Assembly (NCBI GenBank): GCA_030614915.1
Contig: JAUXAG010000006.1
Coordinates: 66,642-130,641 of the forward strand
From: Actinomycetes bacterium
GTDB taxonomy: Bacteria; Planctomycetota; Phycisphaerae; JAACET01
Reading direction: 5' to 3'
Length of the DNA: 64,000 nt
The notes beneath the pieces are model-generated. The model did not search any database. It was not told the DNA's origin and saw nothing but the letters and a program-made list of their open reading frames with translations. The position numbers and the translations under genes were made by a program. Below are positions 460-51,510 of the stretch, in pieces; the first letter of the stretch is position 1; the number at the start of each line of letters is the position of its first letter.

Positions 460-1851
460 ATGTTACGTGTAACAATCTTTCTGACAAGCTTGGCTCTGTT
501 GGCCACATCGGCCCTAGCCGACGAAATTATCGACGAAGCCCGCCTGGGGCCCGGCCTGAGTCTGACCGTCTATAACCAGGACTTGGCCGTTATCAAGGAA
601 CGCAGGCTCATGGAGCTGGGCCGCGGGCGAGACGTACTCAAGTTCGCCAAGGTCGCCGCCAGGATTATCCCCCAGACCGTGCAGTTCAGCTCTTTGACCG
701 ACCCCGGTAAGACCAAGGTCCTGGAGCAGAACTACGAGTTCGACCTGGTTTCGGCCGACAAACTGCTGGACAAATACATCGACAAGCCCATCCGGATCAT
801 TACCCGCGATGGCCGAATGACCGAAGGGACGCTGCTGAGTTACGATTCGACCCAGTTGGTCCTGGCCGACGGCGACGGCGGGCCGATCCAGCTCTTGCCC
901 CGACCCAATAACATCCGCGACATCCAGTTCGGCTCCCTCCCTGAGGGATTCCTGACTAAGCCCACGCTGGTCTGGCTCGTCGAGTCGCAAAAGGCTGGCG
1001 AGCACCTGATCAAAGTAGCCTATCAGAGCCGGGGCTTCTCCTGGCGGGCTGACTATACCGCTCTTATCGCCGAGGACGAGAAGAGCATGACCCTGGCTGG
1101 CTGGGTAACAATTACCAATAAGTCCGGGGCCAGCTATCGCGACGCCGGCCTGAAGCTCATGGCCGGTGATGTACACATCGTTAAGGAAGAGAGGCGTCTG
1201 GGCCGGATATCCGGCCCCGAAGGTCGCGAACGCGCGAGTAAATCAGCCCGAGGTTTTGAGGAAAAGGCCTTTGCCGAGTATCACCTCTACACCCTGGGCA
1301 AGACCACCACGCTGCGGGACAACCAGGTCAAGCAGATCGAGCTCTTTCCCATCGTTGAAGAAGTGCCCGTGCACAAGAAGTATCTCTATCGCGGCGGAAA
1401 TGACGTGGGCGTGTATCTGGAAGTCAAGAATACCAAGCAGAATAATCTGGGCATGCCCTTACCAGCCGGCAAGGTCCGCGTCTATCAGACGGATATCGAC
1501 CGGGCCCGGGAGTTCATCGGCGACGACAGTATCGACCATACGCCCAAGGACGAGCCGGTGAAGGTGCGCATCGGCCGGGCCTTTGACCTGGCTGCCCAGC
1601 GGACGCGGATGGACCACAAACGTCCCAGCGATCGGGTGGAGATTCAGACCTGGCAGATAAAGCTCCGCAATCATAAAGACGTCCCCATCGAGATGGAGGT
1701 CCAGGAGTTCCTGCGGACAGGTGTTAACTGGAAAGTAACGGACTTCAGCGACGAATTCACCAAAAAGGATTACCGCACCATCGTTTTCAAGAAAGAAATG
1801 CCGGCCAACAGCGAATGGATCATCAACTACACCGTTCGCTATTGGTGGTGA
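460..1851 (+). CDS. Secreted DUF4140/DUF4139-like protein (tandem paralog 2)
   Basis: 463 aa with N-terminal signal peptide (MLRVTIFLTSLALLATSALA). Shares NYEFDLV..KLL.KYIDK, GW.TI.N and C-terminal R-Y-x-W motifs with the neighbouring paralogs. Family name is from memory of the DUF4139 architecture, not a search. Confidence 0.8.
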   Translation: MLRVTIFLTSLALLATSALADEIIDEARLGPGLSLTVYNQDLAVIKERRLMELGRGRDVLKFAKVAARIIPQTVQFSSLTDPGKTKVLEQNYEFDLVSADKLLDKYIDKPIRIITRDGRMTEGTLLSYDSTQLVLADGDGGPIQLLPRPNNIRDIQFGSLPEGFLTKPTLVWLVESQKAGEHLIKVAYQSRGFSWRADYTALIAEDEKSMTLAGWVTITNKSGASYRDAGLKLMAGDVHIVKEERRLGRISGPEGRERASKSARGFEEKAFAEYHLYTLGKTTTLRDNQVKQIELFPIVEEVPVHKKYLYRGGNDVGVYLEVKNTKQNNLGMPLPAGKVRVYQTDIDRAREFIGDDSIDHTPKDEPVKVRIGRAFDLAAQRTRMDHKRPSDRVEIQTWQIKLRNHKDVPIEMEVQEFLRTGVNWKVTDFSDEFTKKDYRTIVFKKEMPANSEWIINYTVRYWW

Positions 1852-1915
1852 AGATAGAAAGGACAAGCTAACCAGGCCGAGGAACCGTTCCCGGCTAACA
1901 TTTGGAGGAAAAACC

Positions 1916-3367
1916 ATGAAACGCAGCATAACAATTCTATTATCACTGGCAGCGCTGGTCACCTTGGCCGGGGCGCTTGGCGCAGCCCCCAAAGAACAGG
2001 TCAAGCTGACTGTGTACAACAAGAATTTCGCCCTGGTCAAAGACACGCGTCTGCTGGACTCGCCGTTGGAGGCTGGGCTCAACGTAGTCCGCTTTCGCGA
2101 CGTAGCCAGCACCATCGACGCTACCAGCGTTTACTTTCGCTCGCTCACCGACCCGGCCGGCACCACCGTCGTCGAGCAGAACTACGAGTTCGACTTGGTC
2201 AACGCCAACAAGCTGCTGCACAAATATATCGACAAGCAGATCAGCATCTTGACCAAGGACGGCGAATTGTACGAGGGCACCCTGTTGAGCTTCGACGGGC
2301 GGCAAATCGTGCTGGGCGACGAGAAGCAGAAGCTTTCGCTCATCGAGCGGGGCGAGAACATCAAGAAGATCAGCTTCAGCGCCCTGCCCGAGGGCCTCTT
2401 GACTCGGCCGACGCTGGTCTGGGAGCTCCAGGCCGAGGAGCCCGGCAAGCACCTCGTCCAGGTCAGCTACATTGCCCGGAAGATGAACTGGTCCGCCGAT
2501 TACAACCTGGTGATAAACGCTGAAGAAACAGCCATCGATTTATCCGGCTGGGTAACCATCAACAACCGCACGGGCACCGGCTATAAGCAGGCTATGGTCA
2601 AACTGCTCGCCGGCGATACCGGCCGACAAAACTTGCGACGCAGGGAGTTGGGTTTTGGCCCGGACTACTACAAGACCCTGAGCGAATTGGCCCCCACCGC
2701 CAAGCTCGGCCCCGACCCCAGCAGAGCCTTTGCCGAGTACCGCATGTACAAGCTCCCCGAAGCCACCACGGTCAACAACAACCAGGTCAAGCAGATCGAG
2801 CTGATTACCGCCGCCAACGTGCCCGTCAAAAAGATCTACGTTTACGACGGGGCCAAGATCCGCTGGAACTGGTATGGCAGATACTGGGACCGGGGCTTTG
2901 GCCGGGAGGAAAACAAAAAAGTCAATGTCCTCCTGGAGTTCGAAAACCGCGCCGAGGGGAACTTAGGGCTAGCTCTGCCCAAAGGCAAGTGCCGCGTCTA
3001 TAAGCGCGACGAAGATAAGTCCCTGGAGTTCATCGGCGAAGATTTGATCGACCACACTTCCCGCGATGAGAAGGTTACTCTTTATATCGGCGACGCCTTC
3101 GACATCGTCGGCGAGCGGAAGCAGACCGATTTTCGCAAAATCTCCGACCGTATCTGCGAAGAGGATTTCGAGATCAAGATCCGCAATCACAAGGACCAGG
3201 CCGTTACCGTGGAGGTGTTGGAGAAGCTCTATCGCTGGAGCGAATGGACCATGCTCTCGGCCAGCCACGAATATAAGAAAATCAACAGCCGAACGATCAT
3301 CTTCCCCGTCCAGGTTCCCAAAGACGGCGAGGTTGTTATAACCTATTCAGTTCGCTATAAGTGGTAA
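1916..3367 (+). CDS. Secreted DUF4140/DUF4139-like protein (tandem paralog 3)
   Basis: 483 aa, signal peptide, same conserved blocks as 460-1851 (about 45% identity by eye). Confidence 0.8.
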   Translation: MKRSITILLSLAALVTLAGALGAAPKEQVKLTVYNKNFALVKDTRLLDSPLEAGLNVVRFRDVASTIDATSVYFRSLTDPAGTTVVEQNYEFDLVNANKLLHKYIDKQISILTKDGELYEGTLLSFDGRQIVLGDEKQKLSLIERGENIKKISFSALPEGLLTRPTLVWELQAEEPGKHLVQVSYIARKMNWSADYNLVINAEETAIDLSGWVTINNRTGTGYKQAMVKLLAGDTGRQNLRRRELGFGPDYYKTLSELAPTAKLGPDPSRAFAEYRMYKLPEATTVNNNQVKQIELITAANVPVKKIYVYDGAKIRWNWYGRYWDRGFGREENKKVNVLLEFENRAEGNLGLALPKGKCRVYKRDEDKSLEFIGEDLIDHTSRDEKVTLYIGDAFDIVGERKQTDFRKISDRICEEDFEIKIRNHKDQAVTVEVLEKLYRWSEWTMLSASHEYKKINSRTIIFPVQVPKDGEVVITYSVRYKW

Positions 3368-3403: not shown

Positions 3404-4849
3404 ATGAAACGCATTGTCCTAGCCGGAGTTATCTGTTTAGTCCTGTTTGTCAGCCTTTGGCTAATCGCCAGCAGTTCAGATGACGAAGCCGTCCCCAAGC
3501 CGCCCGCCAGCCAGCCGAAGGGAAGGGCTGAACCAGACTCGAGTAATATGACAAAGTGGGGCCCGAAGCTGAGCGAGGAGGAATTGGCAGAGATAGCCAA
3601 GCTGTCTGTGCCAGAATTGGCTGAGATGCTAAGAACTGGGGATACGATGCATAGATTCGCCGCGCTAGATCAGTTGGAAGCAGATGGGGGCTGGAGAAAG
3701 AACTTTGACCTGCTTCTGGGCATTGGCGGGGATATGGTCGTTGGAGGACTGCTCCGTAGGCTTTGTCCGCTGAAGACCTCGGCCCCTGTTGAGGATAAGC
3801 AACTGGTGGACAAGTTCCTAGATTTCTTGCAAGGACAACTTAAGGAGCTAAAACCCTCGGTCTCGGGGCCTCAGGCGGTGCGTAGTATTGTCCGGACTGT
3901 CTTTCATCGTGATCGCGGATTGCCTGGAATGCCTGGATACACCCCGCCGGAAATACCTTACGCCAATGATCGTGTCATTAACATTTTGATTTCCTGCTTG
4001 GACAACGATGATTGGAATGTGCGCGAGGAGGCACTTAATTGGCTAACGAATGTTGGAGCAAACGATCCTGCCAAGATTGACTATGTGATTGCGGCTTTGG
4101 AGACTCAACTGACTAAAGAGCAGGCTTCACAGGAGAATCAAGAGGTTAGGGCAAGGGTTAAGGCATGGCGGGTACAACGTATCCAGGGTATCATCGAAGC
4201 GCTAAAAAGGCCCCCTACGCAATGGAATTACCCAGGCGGACCGGCTATGCCCGGCATGTTCCAGCCCGCCACGCAGCCGCCTTTAGATAAACGCTTTGTG
4301 GATTTAACACCAAAGCAGTTGATACCTCACGTACTCAATCGAAGCAACCCTGATGGCCCTGATGGATGCCGTCTGGCTTGTGCATGGTTTATATGGAAAA
4401 CTCGGAACACACCAGATGGACAGATGCTGCGAAATGAATTAGCCGACAGACTTGTCGAAAAGATTGGAAAAGTAGACAAGGACCAGATGAAAATGGTACA
4501 CGATGTGTATTTCTGGGCTGAGATGTTCGGGCCACTTGGCGCAAGAGAACAGACCGTATCGCTTTTGAAGGAACTAAAATATGTAGATTGCTGCTATGGC
4601 CCCAATCTGGTAAATTCACTGGCGGTTTGTGGTAAGATTGAAGATGCACCAATTCTTATCGAACTTATAGATAAAGAATCAGAAGGTGGAGCTGGTGCTA
4701 TTAATAAGGCTCTTGAGAAACTTACTGGCGTTAAAATGCCTTTGACCAGCCGGAGATATACGGACAAAACTGCATGGCAAGGTTGGTGGGAAGACAACAA
4801 AGACAGAGTGCTCCAGCCCGCCACGCAGGCGGAGGTCGAAATGCCATAG
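3404..4849 (+). CDS. Hypothetical protein with N-terminal signal anchor/TM helix; helical-repeat (HEAT-like) appearance
   Basis: 481-aa ORF with N-terminal hydrophobic helix (VLAGVICLVLFVSLWLIA). No recognisable catalytic motif. Confidence 0.6.
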   Translation: MKRIVLAGVICLVLFVSLWLIASSSDDEAVPKPPASQPKGRAEPDSSNMTKWGPKLSEEELAEIAKLSVPELAEMLRTGDTMHRFAALDQLEADGGWRKNFDLLLGIGGDMVVGGLLRRLCPLKTSAPVEDKQLVDKFLDFLQGQLKELKPSVSGPQAVRSIVRTVFHRDRGLPGMPGYTPPEIPYANDRVINILISCLDNDDWNVREEALNWLTNVGANDPAKIDYVIAALETQLTKEQASQENQEVRARVKAWRVQRIQGIIEALKRPPTQWNYPGGPAMPGMFQPATQPPLDKRFVDLTPKQLIPHVLNRSNPDGPDGCRLACAWFIWKTRNTPDGQMLRNELADRLVEKIGKVDKDQMKMVHDVYFWAEMFGPLGAREQTVSLLKELKYVDCCYGPNLVNSLAVCGKIEDAPILIELIDKESEGGAGAINKALEKLTGVKMPLTSRRYTDKTAWQGWWEDNKDRVLQPATQAEVEMP

Positions 4850-4904
4850 GGCCTGGATTCCCGCTTTCGCGGGAATGACATGGCTACGAATCGTGCATCG
4901 CTGT

Positions 4905-6611
4905 TTACCGGAAGCTTCGCCAGCGGGCGGGCGGCCAATATACACAGGTTACCACGCCTTCGATCAGCTCGGCGGGCACTGTGCCGGGCTGAATTCTCCC
5001 CTGCAGGCTCGGATGGATTTGCCAACCCAGACGGGAATCGCTGCTGACGGCGCTGTTATCGCCGAGGACGTAGTAATGGCCGGGCTGTATCCTCACAGCG
5101 GCGGCCCGGGGCGGGAACTCGCTTGGCTTTGCGGATATGGTCCGATAATGGATGTCCCTGTCGAGCTGAATGCGGCTAATTCTGCCCCGACAATTCTTCG
5201 CGGCAATACTCAACTGACAGGACTGGGGCGGGATTCGCCCAGCGGCCTCGGCTTCAAACGGCCCGACTGCTGCTTGAGCTAGCAACTCTCTATCGGCGTA
5301 CAGATAAGCGTAGCCGTCTCGGATAATCAGCATCAATTCCAAACCGCTGCCGATGCCTCGGCCCAGATGAGCCGTCTCGGTAACATCCGGCTGTTGTCGG
5401 CCGGGCCCCCGGACCGCCAGATTCGCGGCGCCGGCGGCGTCGATGCTTCCGCGGACCTCCCTGCCCGAGTGTTCCCAGAGCAGGCTCAGGCGGCCATGCC
5501 CCTCAAGCTGCGACAGTCGAACGCCCAGCCTCACGTCGTGTATGGGTTTGGGCTCAATATATTCCAAGGCGTTGACGTTGTAGGCCAGCTCGTCCGTAAG
5601 TTCACCCGTCAGCTCAAGTGACTCGGGGCGATTCTAGGCCGAATTGAACAGCCAGCTTCGCCCCTGGGCTTGCCAACCGACGGCGCTTGGCTTCGGCTGC
5701 CACCACAGCTTGGCCCCGGGTGAATCCTCGGCTTGAAACCTTGTATCCAGGACACTCAGCCACATCTCCTCGTGGGCCAACGCCGGCTTGGAGACCAGCG
5801 AACCGTTGATGAAAATCTCCCCGTTGATTATTTGCACCTCTTCGCCGGGCAGACCAACCACTCTCTTCAGCACCAAAGTACTCATGTCGGCCGGCGAATG
5901 AAACATCAGCAGATCCCATCGGCCAGGGCTAAGCCTCTTGCCGGCCAATATTCGATCTCTCGGGGGCGTGGAGCTATTGACAACGGCCAAATCCTCCCCG
6001 CCGCACATCGGGCAGCTCAGGTCTGGCGTGGGCGTGTACTTCCGCTCAGAGGGCAGTAAGCCCACCTTGAACGCATAGCCGCAGCCTCGGCAGCTCAGCT
6101 TGGCATGTTGGCCCAAAAGAGCGGTGGCCATGGAACCTTCACTGATTTGGTATTCTCCGACCAAGAGTTCCCGGCCGGGCCCAAGGGCCAATATCCCAGC
6201 CGGTACTGGAGCCACAGCCACCACAGCGGCCATGGCCACGATACGCAGAAAGGAATTCTCGATAGTTACCTTCCGGAACAGCCAGCCGCAGCGGGCGGCA
6301 TCGACCCAGCCGAGGAGGTGATACAGAGCTACGGCCACGGTTATGGCCACCAGGCGCCATCCGCCCGTGGCCCCAGCCACCAGCAGCCATAGGCCGACCA
6401 AGAGCAGTTCTCCGGCGAACCAGAGGCTGGCCCGGATAGGACGGCCGCTGAGCCACTGCCCCGGACCGGCGAAGGTTAGCGAACCTAACCAGCAGGCCAC
6501 AGCGGTCCAGAGTCGGTCACGCTTCGAGGCTCGCACCCAAGCCTCGATTTTACGCGGATGCCCCGCAGAGTGGACGAGTCTTGAATCTTGCTGGGGGATT
6601 GGTTTGTTCAC
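4905..6611 (-). pseudogene. Signal peptidase I (S26)-like gene with 4-TM N-terminal extension and zinc-ribbon insert, interrupted by a single in-frame TAG (5634-5636)
   Basis: ORFs 5634-6611 and 4905-5567 are in the same frame (6611-5567=1044=348x3). I translated the 22 codons between them by hand and they are open. Upstream part carries box B (EGSMATAL), a CxxC..CxxC insert (CRGCGY...CPMCGG), box C (RWDLLMFHSP) and box D (KRVVGLPGE). Downstream part carries box E (YYVLGDNSAVSSDSRLGW). Confidence 0.55.
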
Positions 6612-6629
6612 AGGATATTCGGGCTGGAT

Positions 6630-7307
6630 CTACCAGCCGGTGAAAAAACCACGCGTGCGATGGCCCTTCAAACTCAGCGTGTATAGCCCTTGGCGCTCAT
6701 CGACAGTCTCCAAAACCATGCTGCACCTGTTACCGAAGATTCCGGCATCGAATGTAAAGCCGTCTTTGCTCAGCAGTGTCTGCTTGTCGCCTCGGGAGCT
6801 GTATTCGTTGGCCGCCAGCATCAGAATACGTCTCATCGATGAGCTGACGCCGAAAACCTCGTTGATCTGGTCGAAGTGACGCGAGGTGTCGAAGAGTATG
6901 TGTCTGAAGTATTGCAGGATAGCTTCTTCCCGCGGGCCGGGCGCAGCCGAGTACTGCTGAAGTTCGCTTGGGGCTACCTGAGTTTCCAGGGCTATCTTCC
7001 AGGTATCTGTCCGCCAGAGGATTAGCAGCGGCGCGCGGACCCAGTGCCAATAGTACTTGGCGGTTACGATACCATCCTCATCAAGGTTTACCATCATCAG
7101 CTCGGTGTTCTTGCTGAGTTCGTCCTTGGCCAAGGCATATGCGTAGCGGTCCTCGGCCTGGACGGGTGTCTTGAAGGCCTCCTGGACATCCACAGCTGTA
7201 GATCGGCCAACTTTCAGCCCCTGCCACTGCTCATAGCGGCAACCCATCAAACTGGTCATCGTTGCAAGTACAAGCACTGCAACTATCGAAAATTTGGCTG
7301 TTCTCAC
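6630..7307 (-). CDS. Hypothetical lipoprotein
   Basis: 225-aa ORF with lipoprotein-type signal (…TMTSLMGC). No known motif. Confidence 0.55.
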   Translation of the reverse strand: MRTAKFSIVAVLVLATMTSLMGCRYEQWQGLKVGRSTAVDVQEAFKTPVQAEDRYAYALAKDELSKNTELMMVNLDEDGIVTAKYYWHWVRAPLLILWRTDTWKIALETQVAPSELQQYSAAPGPREEAILQYFRHILFDTSRHFDQINEVFGVSSSMRRILMLAANEYSSRGDKQTLLSKDGFTFDAGIFGNRCSMVLETVDERQGLYTLSLKGHRTRGFFTGW

Positions 7308-7438
7308 GATCAGTCCTCTCTATCTACACACAACACAGCAGGATACGTTACGTGCTTGTACCCGAGCTGGTTCGGGATAACAAATACTAATATCGGGCAT
7401 TTTTCGGGTCAAGCTTCACGAAAATCCAGTTCTACCAG

Positions 7439-8569
7439 TCAATTATGTTTCAGGGCTAAATGGTCGGCGTGAATTACCTCTTCCCGGACGCCTTCACCGA
7501 GCAGTTCTTTGAGCCGGCTGGACTTTAGACCCTTGATCTTTCTGATCTGAGCGGAGGAGTAATTTACCCGCCCCTTGCCTATTGTTTGCCCATCCGGTCC
7601 GAGGACCTCGACCACCTGAGAAGCCCGGAAGTTTCCTCTTACAGAGGTAATGCCAATCGCCAGGAGACTCTTTCGCGATTCTAGAATAGCCTGAGCTGCC
7701 CCGCTATCGACGCTCAAGGTCCCGGCTGTCTTTGCCGCAGCGCCTATCCAGCGTCTGTGGGCATTGACCCTTTTGCCGGCGGGGATGAACAACGTCCCCA
7801 ATTCTTCGCCCTGCAGGAGCCTGTCGACTATGTGGGGCAATTTGCCGTTGACGATGATGGCTGCGTCGCCGGCATCGGTAACCAGGGCGGCGGCCTGCAA
7901 TTTCGAGGACATTCCGCCAGCCCCACTGCGGCTTCGGCGACCCTGATCCAGACAATAGATCTCTTCGTCCACCTTCTCGACCACCTCCACGACCCGCCCG
8001 TCTTTGAGCAAGCCGTCCACGCTGCTCAAGAAAATCAGCAGGTTGGCCCGCAGTAGATTTCCTACCAGGGCAGCCAATATGTCGTTTTCGCCGAAGCGAA
8101 TCTCCTCCACCGCCACGCTGTCGTTCTCGTTGATGATCGGCACGGCTCGCATCTTGTGCAGGGCATCGATGGTTCGCCGCGTGTTCAGATAGCGGGTGCG
8201 GTTCTCAAAATCCGAACGGGTCAAGAGGATTTGCCCCACCTTCAAGCCGTGTTTGGCCAAGGCCGCTTCGTAGAGGCGCATCAGGTGCGGCTGGCCGATG
8301 GCCGCGGCCGCCTGCAACTGCTCTATTTTCTTGGGACGACTGGCCCGCTCGAGTTGGGCCAAACCCCTGCCGATGGCCCCGCTGGAGACTAGAACGACTT
8401 TGACCCCTCGCTGGTGCAGCTTGGCGATACTCTGGGCCAATTCGCGGATTACTCTGCGATTGTGCCTGGCCCCCGGGCTGTCGGTTTTCGCCAGCACGTC
8501 GGATCCGATCTTGATCACTATCAATTTGGCTTGGCTGAGGACTTTTTGCCGCAAAGTTTTGCTGGGCAT
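7439..8569 (-). CDS. proB: Glutamate 5-kinase (with C-terminal PUA domain)
   Basis: N-terminal VIKIGSDVLA, VLVSSGAIGRG and amino-acid kinase fold motifs. 376 aa is typical of ProB with PUA. Confidence 0.9.
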   Translation of the reverse strand: MPSKTLRQKVLSQAKLIVIKIGSDVLAKTDSPGARHNRRVIRELAQSIAKLHQRGVKVVLVSSGAIGRGLAQLERASRPKKIEQLQAAAAIGQPHLMRLYEAALAKHGLKVGQILLTRSDFENRTRYLNTRRTIDALHKMRAVPIINENDSVAVEEIRFGENDILAALVGNLLRANLLIFLSSVDGLLKDGRVVEVVEKVDEEIYCLDQGRRSRSGAGGMSSKLQAAALVTDAGDAAIIVNGKLPHIVDRLLQGEELGTLFIPAGKRVNAHRRWIGAAAKTAGTLSVDSGAAQAILESRKSLLAIGITSVRGNFRASQVVEVLGPDGQTIGKGRVNYSSAQIRKIKGLKSSRLKELLGEGVREEVIHADHLALKHN

Positions 8570-8590: not shown

Positions 8591-9988
8591 CTAGTTTTGC
8601 CGGAGGGCGGCTTTGTCCACCGGCGGCGCGCAGGTTCGTGCATGGTGATGGGCTGATCTTCCCAGGATTCGGCAGATCAGCTTCATATGTTTGTCCGTGG
8701 CTCCCTTACGATCCAGAATAACCTTCTGGGCCCGTTGGCCTACGGTCCGGGCCAATCCCGGATCGCCCAAGAGCCTCTGCAGTACGGGGCTCAGCTCTGC
8801 TGGGCCGGCAATCTGAAATGCCGCCTCGGCCTCGAGCAAGGCCCGGACCGGCTCGGCGAAGTTGAAGGTGTGCGGCCCAAAGATGATGGCCTTGCCCAAC
8901 CCGGCCGGCTCCATCATATCCGATCCGCCCAGCGGTACCAACGTTCGCCCCACGAAGACGACTCTGGCCAGACTGTAGAATTTGTCTAATTCACCCATGG
9001 TATCGCCCAGTACCACCGTATCCCGGGGCAAGGCCCCCACCGGGTCCAGCAGCCCAAAGCCCATTACCCGCGGACCCTCAGCGGTTTGTTCGAGCGGCAG
9101 GTCCGGACGCTTCGAACGCCGACGCAGAGCAAAACCCCGCACCCTGATGAGCGAGGCCACCTCGGCAAAACGCTCGGGGTGTCGGGGCACAATCGCCAGG
9201 CGGATGTTCGCATGGCCCTCCTGAAGCAGTTGTTGATGAGCGGTGAGGATCTCCTCTTCCTCGCCGGGCCCGGTGCAACCGGCTACCCACAGATGGTGGG
9301 TAGCCTTGATTCCCAACGCCAGGGCAAGCTCCCCGCTGCCGGGAACCTCCTGGGCCACCACTGTAGAGTCGTATTTCATGGTCCCCGCTACGCTGATTCT
9401 CTCCGCCGGCACACCCACCGCCCGGAAACGCTCGGCTATCTCCTCGTCCTGAGCAAAGACGTGTCTGATGCGCCGGAACATCCGCGAGGTAAGGGCCCCA
9501 ATCAGCCGGTATGCTCGCTTTGAGCTTTCGGTCATTCGCCCGTTGGCCACTATCACCGGAATGTTGAAACGATCGGCCTGCACCATGAAGTTGTACCAGA
9601 CCTCCAGTTCCATCAGGATTACCAGCGACGGTCTTAGTCGGCGAAATACTCTGCTTACCACCCAGCTCAGGTCAAAGGGAAAGTAGAATACCTCTTCTTT
9701 ACCGAACAGTTTGCAGGCCCGGTTGTAGCCCGTCCGCGTAGTGGCTGAAATCCGCAGCTCGTGGTCCGGCAAATCCCCCCGCAGTCGTTTAATCAACGCC
9801 CGGGCGGCGTTAACCTCGCCCACACTTACCGCGTGCAGCCAGATCAGTGGCTGAAGCGAATACCGCCGACGAATGTGGCCCATGCGCTGTCGAAGTCCCC
9901 GGGCATACTTTCCCTGAGTGACTGCCTTATAGACGAACATCGGCATCAACAGCACCACCAATAGAATATAGAATAAATCGAGAATCAT
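8591..9988 (-). CDS. waaA: 3-deoxy-D-manno-octulosonic acid (Kdo) transferase
   Basis: LIWLHAVSVGEV near the N-terminus (KdtA signature WxHxxSVGE) and GT-B C-terminal half. Confidence 0.85.
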   Translation of the reverse strand: MILDLFYILLVVLLMPMFVYKAVTQGKYARGLRQRMGHIRRRYSLQPLIWLHAVSVGEVNAARALIKRLRGDLPDHELRISATTRTGYNRACKLFGKEEVFYFPFDLSWVVSRVFRRLRPSLVILMELEVWYNFMVQADRFNIPVIVANGRMTESSKRAYRLIGALTSRMFRRIRHVFAQDEEIAERFRAVGVPAERISVAGTMKYDSTVVAQEVPGSGELALALGIKATHHLWVAGCTGPGEEEEILTAHQQLLQEGHANIRLAIVPRHPERFAEVASLIRVRGFALRRRSKRPDLPLEQTAEGPRVMGFGLLDPVGALPRDTVVLGDTMGELDKFYSLARVVFVGRTLVPLGGSDMMEPAGLGKAIIFGPHTFNFAEPVRALLEAEAAFQIAGPAELSPVLQRLLGDPGLARTVGQRAQKVILDRKGATDKHMKLICRILGRSAHHHARTCAPPVDKAALRQN

Positions 9989-10022: not shown

Positions 10023-13000
10023 CTAACTCCGTCCGCAGCACTTTTTATATTTTTTGCCCGAGCCGCAGGGGCAGGGATCGTTTCGCCCGACTTTTGGAGT
10101 CTTCTTGCGAATGGTCCTGGCCACCGGGGGCGGCTGGCCGGCCTGGGCGGTATCTACCTCGGAGTAATCCATCTGCATCAGGTCGTGACGGGTCTGGGCG
10201 ATGTTGTACACCGAGCGGGCCGACTCGCCGGGTGTGAGCTTGACTTTGAACAACAAGCCTGTTACCCGCGACTGAACCCCCTGGAGCATCTCCTCAAAGA
10301 GCCGCGAGCCTTCCCGGGTGTACTCGATCTTGGGGTCGCGCTCGGCATAGCCGCGCAAACCGATCGAATCGCGCAGATGGTCCATGCTCAGCAGGTGTTC
10401 CTTCCAGCCGGCATCGTATTCGTGCAGGAGAATAAAGCGTTCCAGCTCGCTCAGCTCTCGACGGATAAACTCTCTTCCGGCAGCGAGGAGTTTTTCCCGA
10501 GGGGTTTGTTCGCCACCCTCTTCGCCCAGGTCAGAAGCACTCAAGTTGGCATTGAATCTATCCGAGGCCCATTGGCTGAGCTTTTGCGGGGCATCCGAGA
10601 AGTCGCCCAGCCCCTGGTCCACTTCGTTGGTCAGTCTGCTGTTCTCCAGGAAGTCCCGGCTAAGGTCCAAAAGCCGCCGACGTATGGCCGAGAGCTCCTG
10701 GCCCTGGAAGTCCTCAGGCTTGAACGATTCTTTGTACTTGCGGTTGGCCCAATTGGCCAGCCGTTCGACGGCGAAGAGGTCTTCGGTATTGGACTGGGCG
10801 AAGGTGGTCTCCATGGCCCAGTCCACCGGATAGTGTATTTCCCGTTGGCGGTAGGCTTGTTCGATTTGGCCCAGTAGGGCCCCGCCCACCTCTTCCACCG
10901 AGCGCTCCGCAAATTCAGCCGGGTCGATTCGCAGGTCAAATCTTTCCCTTACCCAATCGGCCAGGGCCCAGTGGCTGAAACCCTTCGCCAGCATGGCCGA
11001 CAGGTCCGAGCAATCCACCGCCTCAACCTGCTGTATGGCCGCTTCGCTTATAGCTTCGCGCATGTCTTCGGGCATCATCTTGCGGAGTTGTCCCTGGCTG
11101 ATGCTGACCTGGAATCGGCTCATGGCCCAGCGCGATACGCCACGCAGGTCCCAGCGTGAAGAGTCTTCTTCTTCGTCGATGTGCTCGCCGAGCTCCAAGT
11201 CCACAGTGCTGCGGACCTCGTCAGCGGCCAGGCGCTTGAGATAATCCTCCAGCTCCTGCTGGTCTTTGCTGGATATGGCCGACACCGCAGCCGAGACGTT
11301 GAAGTTCTCCCGGGCCCAGCGAGCGATACACTCGGCTGGATAGTCTTTCCGCAGATACGTATCAACCGCTTCGCCAACGGAGCCTTCAATCATCGACCAG
11401 ATGAGCTGGGGGATCTCTCGACCCTCCAGAATTCTCTGCCGCAGACTGTAGAAGTACTTCCGCTGGGCATCCATAATGCCGTCGTATTCCAGTAAGTTTT
11501 TGCGGATGGAGAAGTTCCGCTCCTCCACCTTTTTCTGTGCCCGGGCGATACCCTTGGATATCCGCTTGTTCTCGATGGCCATGCCTTCTTCCAGGCCCAG
11601 CCATTCGAGCATCTTGATGGTCCATTCCGGGGCGAAAGTGCGGATCAAATCGTCTCGCAGACTCAGGAAGAACCTGCTCGAGCCGGGATCGCCCTGCCGG
11701 GCGGAACGCCCGCGAAGCTGGTTGTCGATCCTCCGGGCCTCGTGCCTTTCAGTACCTACGATGTGCAAGCCACAGGGCACCCGTTCGCGGCATTCGGTTC
11801 GGCCACGGGCCGGAAAGTCCGGATCCACCTTGGGCTTCCAACAGTGGCCGCATTTTGTGCGGGCGTCATAATCCGGGCAGTGGATGCAGCACTTGGTGGC
11901 CGTAACACCCTTCTCCTGCCAGAACCACTTTTGACCGTTGCTGGACGGGGGGCCGAGGTCTCCGACGCATTTTTCATAAACTACTCCGGTTCCAAGCTTT
12001 ATATCCGTTCCCCGCCCGGCCATATTGGTGGCCACGGTAACATTCCCGAACTCCCTGGAGGGGTCTTTACGGTTCTTGTGGCGATGGCCGGCCTGGGCCA
12101 CGATCTCCGCTTCACGGGAATGATTCTTGGCGTTGAGCACTTCATGAGCCATGCCCATCCTGTGGGTAAGCAGTTGCGAGAGCTTTTCATTGTTCTCCAC
12201 GCTGGTCGTGCCTACCAGGACCGGCCGGCCCGACTCATGCACCGAGCGTATCTCTTCGATAATCGCGTCCCACTTCTCGTCCTCCGAGCGATAAATGACA
12301 TCTTCGTGGTCCATCCGGTTGACCGGCCGGTGCGTCGGCAGGGCCACCACCTCCAGCTTGTATATATTGTGGAACTCCTCCGATTCGGTCATGGCCGTGC
12401 CGGTCATGCCCGCCGGCTTGCCGTAGAGTCGGAAAAAATTCTGCAGGGTGATCGTCGCCAACGTCTGGTTTTCCTGTTTGACGGTTACACCCTCTTTGGC
12501 CTCGACCGCCTGGTGCAGCCCTTCGGACCACTGCCTGCCTTCCATCAGTCGGCCGGTAAATTCGTCAACAATTATCACCTGGTCGTTCTGGACGATGTAG
12601 TGCTGCTCATTCTTATAAATCTCTCGGGCCCGCAGGGCGGTGCTGATCCGATGTATCCAGTACCCCTGGGAGGCCTGGCTGAAGGGCCCTGAGCCGATGC
12701 GGTCTTCAGCCACGCGCTGGCCTTCGTCGGTCATCTTGGCTGAGTGCCTGTCTTTCTCGACGACTACATACTGCTGTAGCCCGATAAGCTCGGCTTCTTC
12801 CTCGTTGAGCAGACGTGGATGGTGCTTGAATTTCAAAAGGGCCGCGGCCGTGGGCCCAACCGCATCGGTTATGTTCTGCACCTTTCGCCGGCAATCTCTG
12901 ACAGCCTTATCCTGCAATGATATCAGGTGCTGGGCTACGTCGTCCGCCGAACGATAGACGCGCACATCATCATAGGCCGGGCCGGAAATAATCAAGGGCG

Positions 13001-13682
13001 TCCGGGCCTCGTCTATCAGTATCGAGTCCACCTCATCAATGATGACGAAGTCGAGGCGGCCCTGCACCTGGGCCTCGGCCGACATCTTCATATTGTCCCG
13101 CAGATAATCGAAGCCGAACTCGCTATTCGTACCATAGGTAACGTCGCAGTCGTACTGGGCTTTGCGCTCCAGGGCCTCGGAGGCGTCCATGCTGGCCTGG
13201 ATGGCCCCAACGCTCATACCCAGCAGCTCGAAGATGGGAGCGGCAAAATCGCGGTCCCGCTGCACCAGGTAGTCATTGACCGTAACCACGTGCACCTTTT
13301 TGCCCAGCAGAAAGGCCAGGTAAATAGCCAAGTAGCAGGCAATGGTTTTTCCCTCACCGGTGGCTTCCTCGGCTATCTTGCCCTCGTGTAGCACTAACCC
13401 GGCGCTGAGCTGCACGTCGAACTGCCGGTGGTCTCGCCCTCGCCGGGAAGCTTCGCGCACCGCTGCACTCGCTTCGGGCAGAATATCCTCGATAGATTCA
13501 CCTTGGCCCAGCCGCCGGCGAAACTCGCCGGTCTTGTCCTGTAGCTGCTGGTCGGAGAGTTGGCGGAATTGCCCTTCCAATGCGGAGATTTGATCTACAG
13601 TTTTCTGATAGCCCTTGAGCAAACGCTGATTGCGCGAGCCGAAGACCTTCGTAAAAGCATTGGATAACGATAGCAGGGCCAT
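10023..13682 (-). CDS. secA: Preprotein translocase ATPase SecA (long form, 1219 aa)
   Basis: N-terminus [12 protein letters not shown]..., DEAD-like motor motifs, C-terminal zinc finger [14 protein letters not shown]. Several insertions relative to the ~900-aa proteobacterial SecA. Confidence 0.95.
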
Positions 13683-14882: not shown

Positions 14883-16280
14883 ATGTCTGCAGAGTCAGCC
14901 AGCTCACCAGCCCTTTGCCTGCCCGCCAAGATCGGCCCCGGCACATTCCGGCGCGGCGTGCATCCGCCTCAGAACAAATCACTCACTGCCGATCTGGCTA
15001 TCGAAGTCTTGCCCAGCCCAGCCAAGCTGGTCCTTCCTTTGTTGCAGCACACCGGCAGACCGGCCGAGCTGTCGGTCAAGCCGCGGGACATCGTCGAAGC
15101 CGGCCAGAAAATCGCCGAACCCACCGGTTTGATCTCCGCTGCGGTGCACACGGCCATTGCCGGCAAGGTCGGGCCCGTCACTACTACTGTTCTGGCCGCC
15201 GGCCTTCGGGTCCCAGCCGTTACCATTACCGCTGATTCTTCGACCGAAGCGCCCGAGCCGAGCTGGCCGCCAGCACAGCCGCCGAGATTCAGCCCGGATG
15301 ATTTTTCCGCCCAGCAGATCGCCGAGGCCGCCCAGGAGGCAGGCCTGGTCGGTCTGGGCGGGGCTGCTTTTCCCACCCATGTCAAGCTGATAACCAGCCC
15401 CGAGCGGCCCATCGACACCCTGATCCTCAACGGCTGTGAGTGCGAGCCTTACCTGACCAGCGACTATCGACTCATGCTCGAAGACCCCTGGTGGATCGTA
15501 GCCGGTTTGTTACTAGCCATGCGAGCCACCGCCGCCCAGCGGGGCATAATCGCTATTGAGGACAACAAGCCCCAGGCCATCGCCGCCATGCACATTGCCA
15601 TAAGCGATCATCCCCAGCTCTCAGTGCAATCTTTGCAGACAAAGTATCCCCAGGGCGGCGAGCGATCCTTATTGCCCGCATCGGTGGGGAGGATTATTCC
15701 TACCAAGGGTCTGCCCCTGCACGTAGGTGTGGTGGTGCTGAACGTCGGCACGTCTGCAACACTGGCACGAGCGGTCCTCAATGGCTCCGGCCTGACTCAC
15801 CGGGTAATCACTGTTACCGGCCAGGGCATAGCTAGACCCGCAAACCTCTTGGTTCCTGTCGGAGTGGCCTTGGGCGAAGTCCTCGATTATTGCGGCGGGC
15901 TCACAGACAGCGCCGCCCAGATCGTTATGGGCGGGCCCATGATGGGCAACACGGTTTCAAACCTCGATCTGCCCATTACCAAGGGCATCTCCGGCGTTAC
16001 CGTGCTCGCCAAGTCACAGTTGGATCGCCGCCCCGAGCGCCCCTGCCTCCGCTGCGCCAAGTGCGTGGACCATTGTCCGATCAAGCTCAATCCCACGGGG
16101 ATTGCCCACGCCGTCAAGCTTCGCGAATTCGAGCTGGCCCGCCAACTGAACCTCGAAGCCTGCGTGGAGTGTGGCTGCTGCGGATACATCTGTCCCAGCC
16201 GGATCCCCCTGGTGCAATACATGCGCTCGGGAAAAGCGGCCCTGCTCCAAATTGACCTGGCTAACAAAGATAAAGGATAA
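14883..16280 (+). CDS. rnfC: Rnf electron transport complex subunit C
   Basis: GGAAFPTHVKL NADH/FMN-binding region and two 4Fe-4S motifs (CLRCAKCVDHCP; CVECGCCGYICPS). Confidence 0.9.
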   Translation: MSAESASSPALCLPAKIGPGTFRRGVHPPQNKSLTADLAIEVLPSPAKLVLPLLQHTGRPAELSVKPRDIVEAGQKIAEPTGLISAAVHTAIAGKVGPVTTTVLAAGLRVPAVTITADSSTEAPEPSWPPAQPPRFSPDDFSAQQIAEAAQEAGLVGLGGAAFPTHVKLITSPERPIDTLILNGCECEPYLTSDYRLMLEDPWWIVAGLLLAMRATAAQRGIIAIEDNKPQAIAAMHIAISDHPQLSVQSLQTKYPQGGERSLLPASVGRIIPTKGLPLHVGVVVLNVGTSATLARAVLNGSGLTHRVITVTGQGIARPANLLVPVGVALGEVLDYCGGLTDSAAQIVMGGPMMGNTVSNLDLPITKGISGVTVLAKSQLDRRPERPCLRCAKCVDHCPIKLNPTGIAHAVKLREFELARQLNLEACVECGCCGYICPSRIPLVQYMRSGKAALLQIDLANKDKG

Positions 16281-16293
16281 CTGGATAGGATCA

Positions 16294-17346
16294 ATGGACG
16301 ACCAGAAGCAGCTTAATGTCAGTCCCACGCCGCACGTTTCGGCGAAGCTCACCACCTCTCGGATGATGGCCGATGTGCTTATCGCCCTTATCCCGGTGTC
16401 GGTAACCGCGACGATACTCTTCGGCTGGCGGACCCTGCAGCTACCGCTGATCTGCGTGGCTACTTGCGTGGTTACGGAGATCATTTTCAACTTCTGCCGC
16501 AAAAAGCCCAACTCCCTGGGTGATTGTTCGGCGGTGGTTACGGGCCTGATTCTGGCCTTTTCCGTTCCCCCGACGCTGCCCTGGTTTGCCTGCGTGATCG
16601 GCTCGGTCGTGGCCATCGGTATTGCCAAGATGCTTTTCGGTGGCTTGGGCTCGAATATTTTCAATCCGGCCATGGTCGGTCGAGCCTTTCTGATGATTTG
16701 CTTCGGCCAACTGATGACCACCTGGACTGCCCCAGGGGTGGAAGATACCGCCAAAATATATGCCACGACCAGGGCTACACCTTTGGCGGTGGCCAAGTTT
16801 ACCGAATCCGATCGAAGCAAGGCCCTGGAGGAAGTTTCCTTAGAAGAGTATGAAATATCGCTGAAAGTTCGGGCCGGAAATCCTGCCGTCCTTGGCGACT
16901 TACTTCGCGGGGCGGTGGGCGGTTGCCTCGGTGAGACTTCAGCCTTGGCTATCCTGATCGGCGGGGCCTACCTCCTCTGGAGAAAAACTATCTCCTACCA
17001 GATAACATTGGGAATGATCGGGGCTATCCTGATTTTTGCCGGAGTGGGTTATTATCTCGCCCCCCAGCAGGTCATGCACCCCTTGGGGCATCTCTTTGCC
17101 GGCGGGGCCATGTTCGGAGCCTTTTTCGTTGCCACCGACCCGGTCAGCTCACCACTTAGCACTCCTGGCAGATGGCTTTTCGGGATAGGCACCGGCGTGT
17201 TAGTGATGGTGATCCGTATTTTCTCGGGCTATCCGGAGGGCATCATGTTTGCCGTGCTGATTATGAATGCCATAGCTCCTTTACTGGATCGCTGGACGGA
17301 GCCAGCCCCGCTGGGCACCAAGGTAAAAACCGCCGCGGGCTCTTGA
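16294..17346 (+). CDS. rnfD: Rnf complex subunit D (NqrB/RnfD family)
   Basis: Polytopic membrane protein. Start moved to the ATG (MDDQKQL) just after the rnfC stop. Position after rnfC supports the call. Confidence 0.85.
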   Translation: MDDQKQLNVSPTPHVSAKLTTSRMMADVLIALIPVSVTATILFGWRTLQLPLICVATCVVTEIIFNFCRKKPNSLGDCSAVVTGLILAFSVPPTLPWFACVIGSVVAIGIAKMLFGGLGSNIFNPAMVGRAFLMICFGQLMTTWTAPGVEDTAKIYATTRATPLAVAKFTESDRSKALEEVSLEEYEISLKVRAGNPAVLGDLLRGAVGGCLGETSALAILIGGAYLLWRKTISYQITLGMIGAILIFAGVGYYLAPQQVMHPLGHLFAGGAMFGAFFVATDPVSSPLSTPGRWLFGIGTGVLVMVIRIFSGYPEGIMFAVLIMNAIAPLLDRWTEPAPLGTKVKTAAGS

Positions 17347-17362
17347 GTGAGGAATAGCTGGC

Positions 17363-17968
17363 GTGATCAACTTTATCAAACAGTCGGCTCTGGTGCTGGT
17401 CCTGGCCGTGGTCTTCGGCTCAGGCTTGGCCTTGATGTATGCCGGGACCAATCCACTCTATCTAGCCAATCAGGAAAAAGCTACCCTCGACTCTATCGCT
17501 AAAACAATCCCCGGGGCTGACACAGCTCAGAATCTGCAGACTTCAGAGGTAGAATCCATCGAAGAGTATAGAGTCTATCGTGTTTTCGATTCGCCAGAGG
17601 ACGGCAAAGAAACGCTTCTGGGCTGGGCCTACGTAGCCAAGGGCAAGGGTTTCGGCGGTGATATCAAGCTGCTCGTCGGCCTGAACGCCCAGGCGGATGC
17701 CCTGGTCGGCATCGACGTCCTTGAAGACGTTGAAACACCAGGCTTCGGGAACTATATAAATGACGAAGAACGCTGGAAGAGCAAGTTTCGGCCGCGCGAT
17801 GGAAAGGCCCTGTCTCTGGACAGGAACTTGGTGGTGATCAAGACCACTCCTAAGAAGCCTTATCAGATTCAGGCTATCACCGGAGCGACTATTTCTTCCA
17901 AGGCCGTGGTCGCCATTATCAACGACACCGCCGGGAAAGTTGCCGCCCAGATAAAGCAAGAGGACTAA
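17363..17968 (+). CDS. rnfG: Rnf complex subunit G (FMN-binding)
   Basis: N-terminal TM helix and FMN-attachment motif ITGATISSKAV. Confidence 0.85.
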   Translation: MINFIKQSALVLVLAVVFGSGLALMYAGTNPLYLANQEKATLDSIAKTIPGADTAQNLQTSEVESIEEYRVYRVFDSPEDGKETLLGWAYVAKGKGFGGDIKLLVGLNAQADALVGIDVLEDVETPGFGNYINDEERWKSKFRPRDGKALSLDRNLVVIKTTPKKPYQIQAITGATISSKAVVAIINDTAGKVAAQIKQED

Positions 17969-17973
17969 TATAG

Positions 17974-18600
17974 ATGGCTGACAAAAGTAGCGAACCAAGC
18001 TCGCTGGTGCGCTTTATCAACGGCATTTTGCCGGAGAATCCGGTTCTGCGCCTGGTGCTGGGGATTTGCCCCACCCTGGCGGTAACCGCTAGCATGGAAG
18101 GGGCAATCACCATGGGCCTGGCGGCGACGTTCGTGCTGTTCTGCTCCAACTTCTTCGTCTCGCTGCTGAAAAGATTCCTTCAGCCGCATCTGCGGATACT
18201 GGTCTTTACCATTATCATCGCCACCTTCGTTACCATCGTAGATATGTTCCTCAAGGCTTTCATGTATGACATGTCCCGAACGTTGGGCCCGTACATTCCA
18301 CTGATTATTGTCAACTGCATTATTATCGCCCGGGCCGAGGCCTGTGCCAGCAAGAGTCGTCTGCTGCCTTCCCTGGCCGATGCCTTGGGAATGGGATTGG
18401 GCTTTACTTTAGCCCTGTGCATCCTGGCCAGCGTCCGCGAGATCTTGGCCGACGGGACCTGGCTGAATATACCGGTAATGTGGGAAGGTTTTACGACTTG
18501 GACTATTATGAAATTGGCTCCGGGCGCGTTTTTGGCGTTTGGGCTGGTCGTCGGAGCCAATAATTTCATCCGCCGCAAACTTGAAGAAAGGAAGAGCTAG
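17974..18600 (+). CDS. rnfE: Rnf complex subunit E
   Basis: 6-TM NqrD/RnfE-family protein, paralogous to the next gene. Order C-D-G-E-A-B. Confidence 0.85.
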   Translation: MADKSSEPSSLVRFINGILPENPVLRLVLGICPTLAVTASMEGAITMGLAATFVLFCSNFFVSLLKRFLQPHLRILVFTIIIATFVTIVDMFLKAFMYDMSRTLGPYIPLIIVNCIIIARAEACASKSRLLPSLADALGMGLGFTLALCILASVREILADGTWLNIPVMWEGFTTWTIMKLAPGAFLAFGLVVGANNFIRRKLEERKS

Positions 18601-18602
18601 CC

Positions 18603-19244: not shown

Positions 19245-19276
19245 CAAGGGCCGGCCCTTAGCGAGGTGCAGCCAAC

Positions 19277-29241: not shown

Positions 29242-31311
29242 TTGTCACTTTCGTCGGCTTGGCGGGCGGGAAGTGAACAAATGTCGTCCAAAAGCAAAAA
29301 GTTTTCATTAGACGAACGTACAGATCAGCCAAAGGCTCGCCTGGCAGAAAGCTCATTTTCAGATTGGCGGGGTTTTGTGGCTGGGGGCCTGATCGTCGCA
29401 GCTGGCTTGCTGGCCTATTGCAACAGTTTCGGCGGGCCTTTCATCTTCGATGGTAAAGGCTCCATTGTTGAAAACTCTCACATCCGCCGGCTTTGGCCTA
29501 TCTGGCAGGTCTTCCGGGCCGAGCCTGGCTCGACCGTGGCTGGCCGACCTATCTTGAGTTTATCTTTCGCCCTGAACTACCAAATCAGTGGCCTGAAGGT
29601 CTGGAGCTATCACGCAGTCAACCTGGCTGTGCATATCCTGTCAGCCTTGACGCTCTTTGGCATCCTGCGCAGGACGTTACTCTCCGAAAGGCTGCGGGGT
29701 CGTTTCGGGCAGGCGTCATTTAGCCTGGCATTAATCTGCGCATTAATCTGGCTGGCACACCCTCTGCAGACAGGCTCGGTAACCTACATCGTCCAGCGGG
29801 CCGAGTCGCTAATGGGTCTATTTTATTTGTTGAGCCTGTATTGTGCCATCCGCGGGTTTTCTTCAGCCAAGAGCCGACGATGGTACACCCCTGCCATTCT
29901 GGCCTGCGCCTTGGGGATGGGCACTAAGGAAGTAATGGCTACTGTCCCGTTTATGGTGTTGCTTTACGATCGAGTTTTCGTATCTCGGTCGTTCAAAGAA
30001 GTATTTACCCGGCGTTGGGGTTTGTATGCCGGTTTGGCGGCTACGTGGGTAATCTTTGGCGGATTAGCTTTTTTCGCTCCGCGGGGCAAGTCAGTGGGCT
30101 TCGGTTCTCCGGGCCTGACAGGGCTCGAATACGCTATGACTCAATGCAAGGTCATTGTTAACTATTATCTAAAGCTTTCCTTTTGGCCGCATCCTCTGCT
30201 GTTGGACTACGGCTGACCGATAGTCAGAAGTTTTGGCCATGTTGTGCCCTACGCCTTGGTGCTTGTGGTGCTGTTGATCGTAACGGTGATAGCCCTTCGC
30301 TATCGCTCAGGTTGGGGTTTTCTGGGGCTTTGGTTCTTTCTGATCCTGGCGCCTAGTTCTAGCTTCCTGCCCATTATCAGCGAAATAGTTGCCGAGCATC
30401 GCATGTACCTTCCTTTGGCGGCGGTTGTTGTTGCGGTGGTTGTTTGTGGCTATTGCCTTGGAGGACATCTGTTCTCTCGGCTGGTAAGTTCTGATGACCG
30501 GCGGCTAGCCCTGGAGCGACTCTTGGGATACGCCTTGGCTGGAGTTGTTGTTTTTGCTCTGGGTTTCGCGACAGCCAAACGGAATCACGACTACCGTAGC
30601 GAGCTTTCAATCTGGCAAGACACCGTCGTCAAACAGCTTGACAATCCGCGTGCCTACAACAACCGAGGACAAGCATACAAGAGCAGGGGCCAGCACGAGC
30701 TGGCCACCCGCGATTACAACAAGGCCATCGAGTTGGATCCCGCATATGCCAAGGCCTACAACAACCGGGGTAACGCCTACGGGAGCAAAGGCGAATATGA
30801 CCAAGCCATCCGCGATCTCAACAAAGCCATCAAGTTGGATCCCAAGAATGCCCACGCCTACTACAGCAACCGGGGCGTTGTCTACCGAGACAAGGGTGAC
30901 CTTGAGCAGGCTATCCGTGATTTCGACCAGGCCATCGCGTTGGATCCCGCATATGCCACGGCCTATAACAACCTAGCGTGGATACTAGCCACGTGTCCAG
31001 ATCCCCAGATTCGCGACGGAGCTGAGGCGGTTCACCTTGCAGAACGAGCCTGCGGACTGGGGGACAATAGAGTTCCGACACAGCTGGACACCCTGGCGGC
31101 CGCCTATGCTGAGCTAGGCCAATTCGACCAGGCCGTCGAAACTGCCGAAAAGGCTGTCCGGTTAGCCTTGGCTGCGGGGCAGCAAGAATTGGCCAAGGAT
31201 ATCCGGAACCGGCTAGAATTGTACAAGGCCAAGCGACCGTTTCGAACCTCTGCACGCCAGCAGGTTCAGCCTGACCGCCTCTCTCCACCAAACTCAAAAG
31301 ACGAACCATAA
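29242..31311 (+). pseudogene. TMTC-like (O-mannosyltransferase-like membrane domain + TPR) gene interrupted by a single in-frame TGA at 30214-30216
   Basis: ORFs 29242-30216 and 30244-31311 share one frame and are separated only by TGA. I checked the readthrough (...LLLDYG*PIVRSFGHVVPYALVLVV...) by hand. N-terminus has the TMTC-like LLAYCNSFGGPFIFDGK motif, and TM helices continue across the stop. C-terminal TPR tail resembles the neighbouring genes. Confidence 0.55.
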
Positions 31312-44914: not shown

Positions 44915-44998
44915 CGTTTTCTCCTGGGAATCGTTGGCAAACTCCTATATTAAAGCCCACACGAATTGGCTAGATAGATTATACCGAATCTGTCCATT

Positions 44999-45031
44999 AT
45001 TGACAAGCCCCCTTCTCGGCCCTATATTCGC
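44999..45031 (+). promoter_or_regulatory. Promoter-like motif ATTGACAAGCC-N-CCCTATATTCG (a second copy lies upstream of the repressor gene, at 47806-47838)
   Basis: TTGACA-N17-TATATT. The 11-nt flanking words are identical between the two copies. No plus-strand ORF lies downstream of this copy. It reads into the AT-rich tandem repeat. Confidence 0.4.
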
Positions 45032-45330: not shown

Positions 45331-45348
45331 GCCCAAGGCGAGCTTAGA

Positions 45349-51422: not shown

Positions 51423-51494
<72 letters not shown>

Positions 51495-51510
51495 TTTCGT
51501 AATAGCTTTT

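Follow-up and report, generated by a model that had tools for sequence, protein, structure and literature searches.

Does a signal peptidase gene that is broken by one TAG codon record a mutation in the organism, an error in the assembly or a stop codon that the organism reads as sense? The question is raised by a locus on the minus strand of a 64,000-nucleotide stretch of bacterial DNA (contig JAUXAG010000006.1, positions 66,642 to 130,641; hereafter the window), where two open reading frames of one and the same frame together encode a peptidase of family S26. Type I signal peptidase (SPase I) is a normally essential enzyme. A first, sequence-only reading of the window had noticed the interruption and had offered three explanations: a nonsense mutation, a sequencing error, and readthrough or recoding. 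Here the interrupted gene is compared with its relatives, with the other genes of the window and with known systems.

One S26 reading frame interrupted by a single TAG

A single minus-strand frame runs from a GTG start at 6611 to a TAA at 4907-4905 (568 codons), and its sole interruption is a TAG at 5636-5634 (Table 1). The upstream open reading frame (5634..6611) encodes 325 amino acids from the GTG and closes at this TAG, past which the same frame is open for another 242 codons, up to the TAA. The second listed open reading frame begins with TTG 5567, exactly 22 codons from the TAG; both the stop and the 22 open codons of the sequence-only reading were verified in the list of open reading frames and its translation. 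Around the stop, which is codon 326, the residues are ...SWLFNSA-(TAG, ancestral Q)-NRPESLELTGELTDELAYNVNALEYIEPK... The part downstream of it is free of frameshifts and further stops and keeps all residues that are invariant in the family alignment (A1).

The two parts belong to one domain. The Pfam profile PF10502 (Peptidase_S26) matches the upstream part with its positions 36-108 (E = 2.8e-11) and the downstream part with positions 113-168 (E = 4.6e-8); joined, the two parts give 75.2 bits [E = 8e-21 (curated cut-off, 22.9 bits)]. With the equivalog profile TIGR02227 (NCBIfam signal peptidase I; curated cut-off, 47 bits) the joined protein reaches 63.2 bits and the halves alone 40.1 and 25.5 bits, both under the cut-off. 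Uninterrupted orthologs match across the stop with E = 0, so the observation of a split gene is far beyond chance.

In alignments to the solved SPase I structures 4me8 and 4nv4, box D (LKRVVGLPGEEV, K249) falls on one side of the stop and box E (YYVLGDNSAVSSDSR) on the other, and the box D segment is aligned with KRLIGLPGE of 4me8. Boxes C and D (LKRVVGLPGE, Lys249) are upstream, and box E (GDNSAVSSDSRLGW, residues 517-530, with GDNSAVSSDSR) is wholly downstream; with the TAG between box D and box E, the boxes are not all in one open polypeptide. The box B candidate (EGSMATAL within ISEGSMATAL, Ser160) was assigned by motif and by eye only, the profile alignments starting after the zinc-ribbon insert; M161 and A162 of this candidate are nearly invariant in A1. 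Among the 71 invariant columns of the alignment are K249, R250, G253 and G256 of box D and G517, D518, N519, S520, S523, D525, S526 and R527 of box E, which align to 4me8 and 4nv4. The earlier proposal that the S26 boxes are divided between two same-frame reading frames, the candidate box B with C and D upstream and E downstream, is correct.

Table 1. Interrupted genes of the window and the neighbourhood of the S26 gene (positions of the window).
Feature	Position	Strand	Evidence or remark
S26 gene, upstream part, 325 codons	5637..6611	-	ORF list, translation, PF10502, alignment A1, 4me8/4nv4
In-frame TAG, codon 326, former Gln codon	5634..5636	-	Ortholog codons and alignment A1
S26 gene, downstream 242 codons and TAA: remaining ConA-like insert and box E	4905..5633	-	PF10502, alignment A1, dN/dS
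225-aa hypothetical	6630-7307	-	Ends 18 nt before the S26 start
proB	7439-8569	-	Pfam
kdtA-like transferase	8591-9988	-	Pfam
secA	10023-13682		Co-oriented neighbourhood, just beyond the kdtA-like gene
Intact PMT_2/TPR paralog	26777-29017		Directly upstream of the interrupted copy
Gene for PMT_2-like membrane domain and TPR repeats, in-frame TGA 30214-30216	29242..31311	+	Translation, homologs

Predicted architecture of the intact family

About four transmembrane helices are predicted in the N-terminal part of the S26 protein. Four such helices together with a basic N-terminus leave it ambiguous on which side of the membrane the catalytic domain would lie. A nearly invariant quartet of cysteines (C174, C177, C200 and C203; zinc ribbon) lies between box B and box C in A1. 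The AlphaFold model, for which A1 was the input, is of low quality as a whole (mean pLDDT 58.7), with residues ~300-490 modelled confidently (85-94) as a beta-sandwich. The Foldseek matches, which concern this domain alone, are ConA-like jelly-rolls, namely GH16 laminarinases, CBM66 and galectin. From these models the intact family is predicted to be a long SPase I, in which N-terminal transmembrane helices are combined with a zinc ribbon and with a ConA-like insert between boxes D and E. According to the predicted secondary structure the 325 codons upstream of the stop include the first strands of the insert, and residue 326 falls in the loop between predicted strands 319-324 and 330-335. The stretch around this residue is variable in the orthologs, and one of them (P0014) is without it.

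Orthologs and the origin of the stop codon

A homology search with the joined sequence found 15 relatives (P0001-P0015), all annotated with PF10502 and 46-85% identical. Of these, 11 (489-573 aa) cover 88-100% of the query, and they do so without interruption at the stop position. More remote S26 relatives (23-45% identity) come from metagenome-assembled genomes (MAGs) of Planctomycetota, Omnitrophota and other members of the PVC group. Near-identical strains were sought among genome contigs and metagenome contigs and by an exact-protein look-up of proB, and none above 85% amino acid identity was found. The gene order secA, kdtA-like transferase, proB, 225-aa hypothetical, S26 recurs in the gene tables of ortholog contigs L002 and L003.

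The nearest public MAGs, L004 (DAOVKO010000140.1) and L005 (JAACET010000010.1), and also P0131, are labelled Actinomycetes or Actinomycetota. The window carries a kdtA-like Kdo-transferase, a DUF1570 protein and an Rnf operon, and its further S26 relatives are all Planctomycetota/PVC; the NCBI labels of this lineage look wrong.

Gln occupies the aligned column of the stop in the four closest orthologs, and Glu, Lys, Ala or Asp in remoter ones. A sense residue is present in all 14 orthologs that cover the site, P0014 being gapped. At the DNA level the site reads CAG (L001), CAA (L002) and CAG (L003), and the flanks are otherwise near-identical between the window and these three contigs (TGG CTG TTC RAY TCG GCC [C/T]AG AAT). 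These codons, which answer the check for a sense codon in related genomes that the sequence-only reading had put forward, show that the TAG derives from a Gln codon by one C>T transition (G>A at position 5636 of the plus strand).

Selection on the two halves

Nei-Gojobori dN/dS between the window and the orthologs is 0.21-0.32 downstream and 0.29-0.42 upstream of the stop; for pairs of orthologs the corresponding values are 0.13-0.25 and 0.25-0.43. Changes on the branches were polarised with L003 as outgroup and their non-synonymous to synonymous ratio (N:S) was counted per site. The window branch has N:S 27:19 over the whole S26 gene, with an excess of synonymous changes over the neutral expectation (p = 0.012). 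Upstream of the stop the count is 10:7 and downstream 17:12, the latter again with a synonymous excess over neutral (p = 0.035). The S26 genes of the L001 and L002 lineages have N:S 44:28 and 31:45, and Fisher's test of the window branch against these two lineages together gives p = 0.40 for the whole gene and 0.27 for the downstream part only. Relaxed selection downstream of the stop was therefore not found, pairwise dN/dS and lineage N:S showing no significant difference from the upstream part or from the sister lineages. A hint of relaxation from a count by codon identity (4N:3S upstream versus 11N:3S downstream) was gone with the per-site count. The number of further stops is uninformative, as about 3 are expected under neutrality over the whole branch and the probability of 1 or fewer is 0.2.

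By these values, purifying selection acted on the S26 gene, its downstream half included, during most or all of the time that has passed since the split from the nearest known relatives. An old, decaying pseudogene is rejected: there is a single lesion, the N:S of 27:19 has its synonymous excess and the sister lineages do not differ. A downstream half that is both intact and constrained implies that the stop is either very young or present in the assembly only.

A second interrupted gene and the search for further lesions

The sequence-only reading had also drawn attention to a second gene with a single in-frame stop, the TGA at 30214, and this interruption is real. The gene encodes a PMT_2-like membrane domain and TPR repeats (Table 1); the gene after it (31450-34803) codes for a third TPR protein, which has MFS and spermine-synthase-like domains. 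In the column of the TGA, 32 of 60 homologs, nearly all of the closest included, have Trp (...LDYG-W-PIV...), which makes the change a single TGG(Trp)>TGA transition. An intact paralog adjoins the interrupted copy, so that loss of this copy could be tolerated.

Both stops (5636 and 30216) are G>A on the plus strand. On the coding strand a transition can create a stop only as C>T or as G>A, and agreement on the plus strand therefore has a probability of 1/2 by chance. An excess of G>A (C>T) on the window lineage, as deamination or a systematic error would give, was looked for over the S26 gene, the 225-aa hypothetical, proB and kdtA, and the spectrum is ordinary (G>A in 26 of 121 changes). Inspection by eye for a methylation-type motif (GGCC, CCWGG) shared by both stops found none in register. 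Among the other Pfam-annotated genes of the window none has a truncated domain, and mutS is intact. A codon-usage scan for more pairs of reading frames bridged by a stop was not discriminating, and Pfam annotation of the main open reading frames was used instead; one same-frame pair, argJ/HIT, consists of two normal genes. The window has two clean nonsense changes in about 40 genes, and nothing indicates pervasive error or a mutator phenotype.

A recent nonsense mutation or an assembly error

Two of the three explanations of the sequence-only reading, nonsense mutation and sequencing error, fit all of the evidence. We rank first a genuine and very recent CAG>TAG nonsense mutation, which would make the gene a fresh pseudogene or, in the population that was sampled, a knockout allele; we hold it to be slightly more likely than not. 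Nearly as likely, and a serious possibility that stays short of an even chance, is that the TAG is absent from the organism. It would then stem from an error of base calling, consensus or assembly, or from a minority allele that was fixed in the assembly, and the true gene would have CAG and be intact.

The S26 gene represents, in this window, a long type I signal peptidase that is conserved in a Planctomycete-like lineage, and it is set in the conserved secA/kdtA/proB neighbourhood. If the mutation is genuine, one C>T transition would have turned Gln codon 326 from CAG into TAG, and under the standard code, which this organism uses, translation would end after 325 residues. The truncated product would keep the membrane anchor, Ser160 and Lys249 and be without most of the beta-sandwich insert and all of box E. 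Box E is needed by every S26 enzyme, a requirement established in E. coli LepB, and by analogy with that enzyme the truncated product should be unfolded or inactive. Compared with the time since the nearest relatives diverged, the mutation would be very young, and the site would be neither a decayed relic nor a place of recoding.

A genuine mutation is favoured by the form of the lesion, a single stop in one frame with the domain split across it and with neither frameshifts nor further stops, and by the state of the site in orthologs (Q/E/K/A/D, with codons CAG, CAA and CAG) in a window where TAG is an ordinary terminator. In favour of an error, only one base separates the site from the ortholog state, and the perfect preservation downstream of the stop, with all invariant residues kept and selection normal, is equally expected from an assembly or base-call error. 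The importance of the gene bears on both readings. Conserved synteny beside secA makes it look like a housekeeping enzyme, which suits an intact true gene and makes a knockout costly unless a paralog exists. None was found in the window: Pfam annotation of the 48 open reading frames and segments submitted gave no second S26 gene, and neither did a six-frame scan of the window with an HMM of A1, a profile that would miss a divergent short lepB.

The second interrupted gene can likewise be turned both ways. A second stop made by a single transition, in a gene with an intact tandem paralog, is what a real and tolerated loss would produce, and it counts against an error; two clean single-base stops within 64 kb, 24 kb apart and unaccompanied by indel lesions, are also compatible with error. 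The lineage seems to be known from metagenomes only, the relatives found being all MAGs or metagenome contigs, which counts for an error. Against it, substitution errors are rare in polished consensus assemblies, no Pfam-annotated gene has an indel-type lesion, and the substitution spectrum of the window lineage over the four genes is ordinary, with no error-like excess of one class and no sign of wholesale damage. Codon ancestry, the split of the domain, normal termination at TAG and the intact, constrained downstream half are observed; that activity is lost and that the TAG base is present in the organism we infer.

For annotation, the two open reading frames are one interrupted S26 gene and not two proteins, and positions 5636 and 30216 are flagged for a quality check. 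Should a real TAG be combined with a genome that lacks any other SPase I, the organism would either live without a normally essential enzyme or read through the TAG. A lone premature stop is as such an ordinary feature of a known kind, common in genomes and in assemblies, and matters little.

Readthrough, a split enzyme and recoding

The remaining option of the sequence-only reading, readthrough or recoding, is unsupported, TAG ending 12 of 35 genes of the window and the stop being unconserved. Terminators were counted in 35 genes, most but not all of them with Pfam support, and are TAG in 12, TAA in 12 and TGA in 11. The genes that end with TAG include efp, argJ, secA, the kdtA-like gene and mutS. 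Their C-termini are where they should be: the C-terminal domain of efp is matched over 1-56 of 56 positions, 2 residues short of its TAG, the argJ profile is complete (2-377 of 377), and the 225-aa hypothetical upstream of the S26 gene, also closed by TAG, has the length of its orthologs (225 versus 224 aa). Conservation of the S26 stop was sought in the orthologs and is absent from all. A 121-nucleotide RNA segment around and after the stop (5540-5660, minus strand) folds no better than its shuffled versions (z = -0.32), and an Rfam scan of the window returned no element, tRNA only. With TAG a frequent terminator, the stop unconserved and neither structure nor Rfam element at hand, code reassignment, pyrrolysine and programmed readthrough are unsupported.

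It is improbable that the TAG is real and leaky, so that a near-cognate tRNA-Gln, or a supE-like amber suppressor with its gene elsewhere, inserts Gln often enough for a functional full-length enzyme and both halves remain under selection. Insertion of Gln at UAG has been reported at low frequency for suppressor-free E. coli, and basal readthrough in bacteria is typically below 1%. Such readthrough would agree with an intact, constrained downstream half and with the position of the site in a variable loop between predicted strands, where any residue is probably tolerated. In yeast, tRNAs for Gln, Tyr and Lys have been documented to decode UAG as near-cognates (PMC4150775). Against it stand the absence of the stop from every ortholog and of significant RNA structure or an Rfam element at the site, and the sole tRNA of the window is a tRNA-Gly(CCC). 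Since TAG ends a third of the genes, essential ones included, an efficient suppressor would be costly. We know of no readthrough motif that matches the context UAG-AAU-CGC. Basal near-cognate readthrough with Gln, the ancestral residue, would be a by-product and not a designed feature.

A broader form of this reading, to which we give slightly less credence still, is that the organism tolerates or exploits leaky termination, so that the TAG (Gln) of the S26 gene and the TGA (Trp) of the PMT_2/TPR gene are both read through and both proteins are functional. Suppressor tRNAs or weak release-factor activity in an uncultured lineage, for example, could be the means. Were it true, it would explain the pristine downstream halves of both genes.

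A split enzyme, in which the two open reading frames are translated separately (the second from a start at or close to TTG 5567) and the products join to form an active peptidase, is very improbable. All catalytic boxes are present in the two pieces together, but the downstream piece has neither signal peptide nor transmembrane segment and so could not reach the periplasmic side, and by eye no Shine-Dalgarno-like sequence precedes TTG 5567. The break falls within one predicted beta-sandwich domain and not between domains, and no ortholog has the split form.

Least credible of all is a changed genetic code or pyrrolysine, with TAG a sense codon in the organism, for which there is the open frame alone and against which stand TAG at the conserved C-termini of 12 of 35 genes (argJ and efp among them), an ancestral residue that is Gln and not Lys or Pyl, and a search of the window for pyl genes and tRNA-Pyl that found none.

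Other features of the window

At 4857-4876, where two genes converge with stop codons at 4849 and 4905, there is a hairpin of 8 perfect base pairs and a GAAA loop (ATTCCCGC-GAAA-GCGGGAAT). A promoter and terminator scan of 4600-7500 found nothing above shuffled expectation and, as the hairpin lacks a T-run, did not call it; the hairpin may terminate transcription in both directions or bind a protein. On the plus strand, 460-3367 holds tandem paralogs (43% identical), each with a DUF4139 and an LSM-like match; contig L002 has a close ortholog (93%) of the second paralog only. A complete rnfCDGEAB-like operon lies at 14883-20101 (+), where the listed rnfC and rnfD reading frames overlap by 110 nt, so that the true rnfD start is probably downstream of 16171.

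Just after mutS there is a GC-poor patch (44-46 kb, 47% GC) at the genes for an AAA_15/AbiEii-like ATPase (42821-44914, minus strand) and a DUF975 protein, and the segment that holds both, 42821-46161, looks like a small defence or mobile island. The tRNA-Gly(CCC) gene (51423-51494) is followed by a tyrosine integrase gene (51897-53111, minus strand). GC content is lower from 50 to 58 kb (49-51%), where genes for a dCTP-deaminase-like protein, a radical-SAM activase (NrdG-like) and NrdD are located; the region 51423-58100 may be an integrated element. A cluster of three co-oriented minus-strand genes spans 59036-63985: 59036-59932 encodes a ThiF-like E1, 59929-62775 a protein of 948 aa that includes a Tubulin_2-like region, and 62702-63985 a protein with a VWA domain.

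Comparison with known systems

The state of the S26 gene resembles that of recent single-lesion bacterial pseudogenes, with one premature stop of the transition type in an otherwise intact open reading frame, intact synteny and no relaxation detectable yet. It shares with amber suppression, by a supE-type tRNA-Gln (CUA) or a near-cognate tRNA-Gln, that the ancestral residue is the one which such suppression inserts. It differs from that system in that the window has no suppressor tRNA, the stop is unconserved, a stimulatory context is lacking and TAG is a heavily used terminator.

A literature search for a signal peptidase architecture with zinc ribbon and ConA insert in Planctomycetes gave nothing relevant; the intact family would represent an unstudied SPase I architecture, conserved beside secA across Planctomycete-like MAGs. 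The protein is like LepB and SpsB (MEROPS S26A) in box D KR(V/I)xGLPG (K249), in box E GDNxxxSxDSR and in its N-terminal membrane anchor, with an SM motif (S160) as candidate box B. Read through the stop, it passes the cut-offs of both curated profiles. It departs from LepB and SpsB in the interrupting TAG, in its much greater length (568 aa), in about four predicted transmembrane helices and in a conserved four-cysteine zinc ribbon between boxes B and C. In place of domain II of E. coli LepB it has a predicted ConA-like jelly-roll of about 190 aa.
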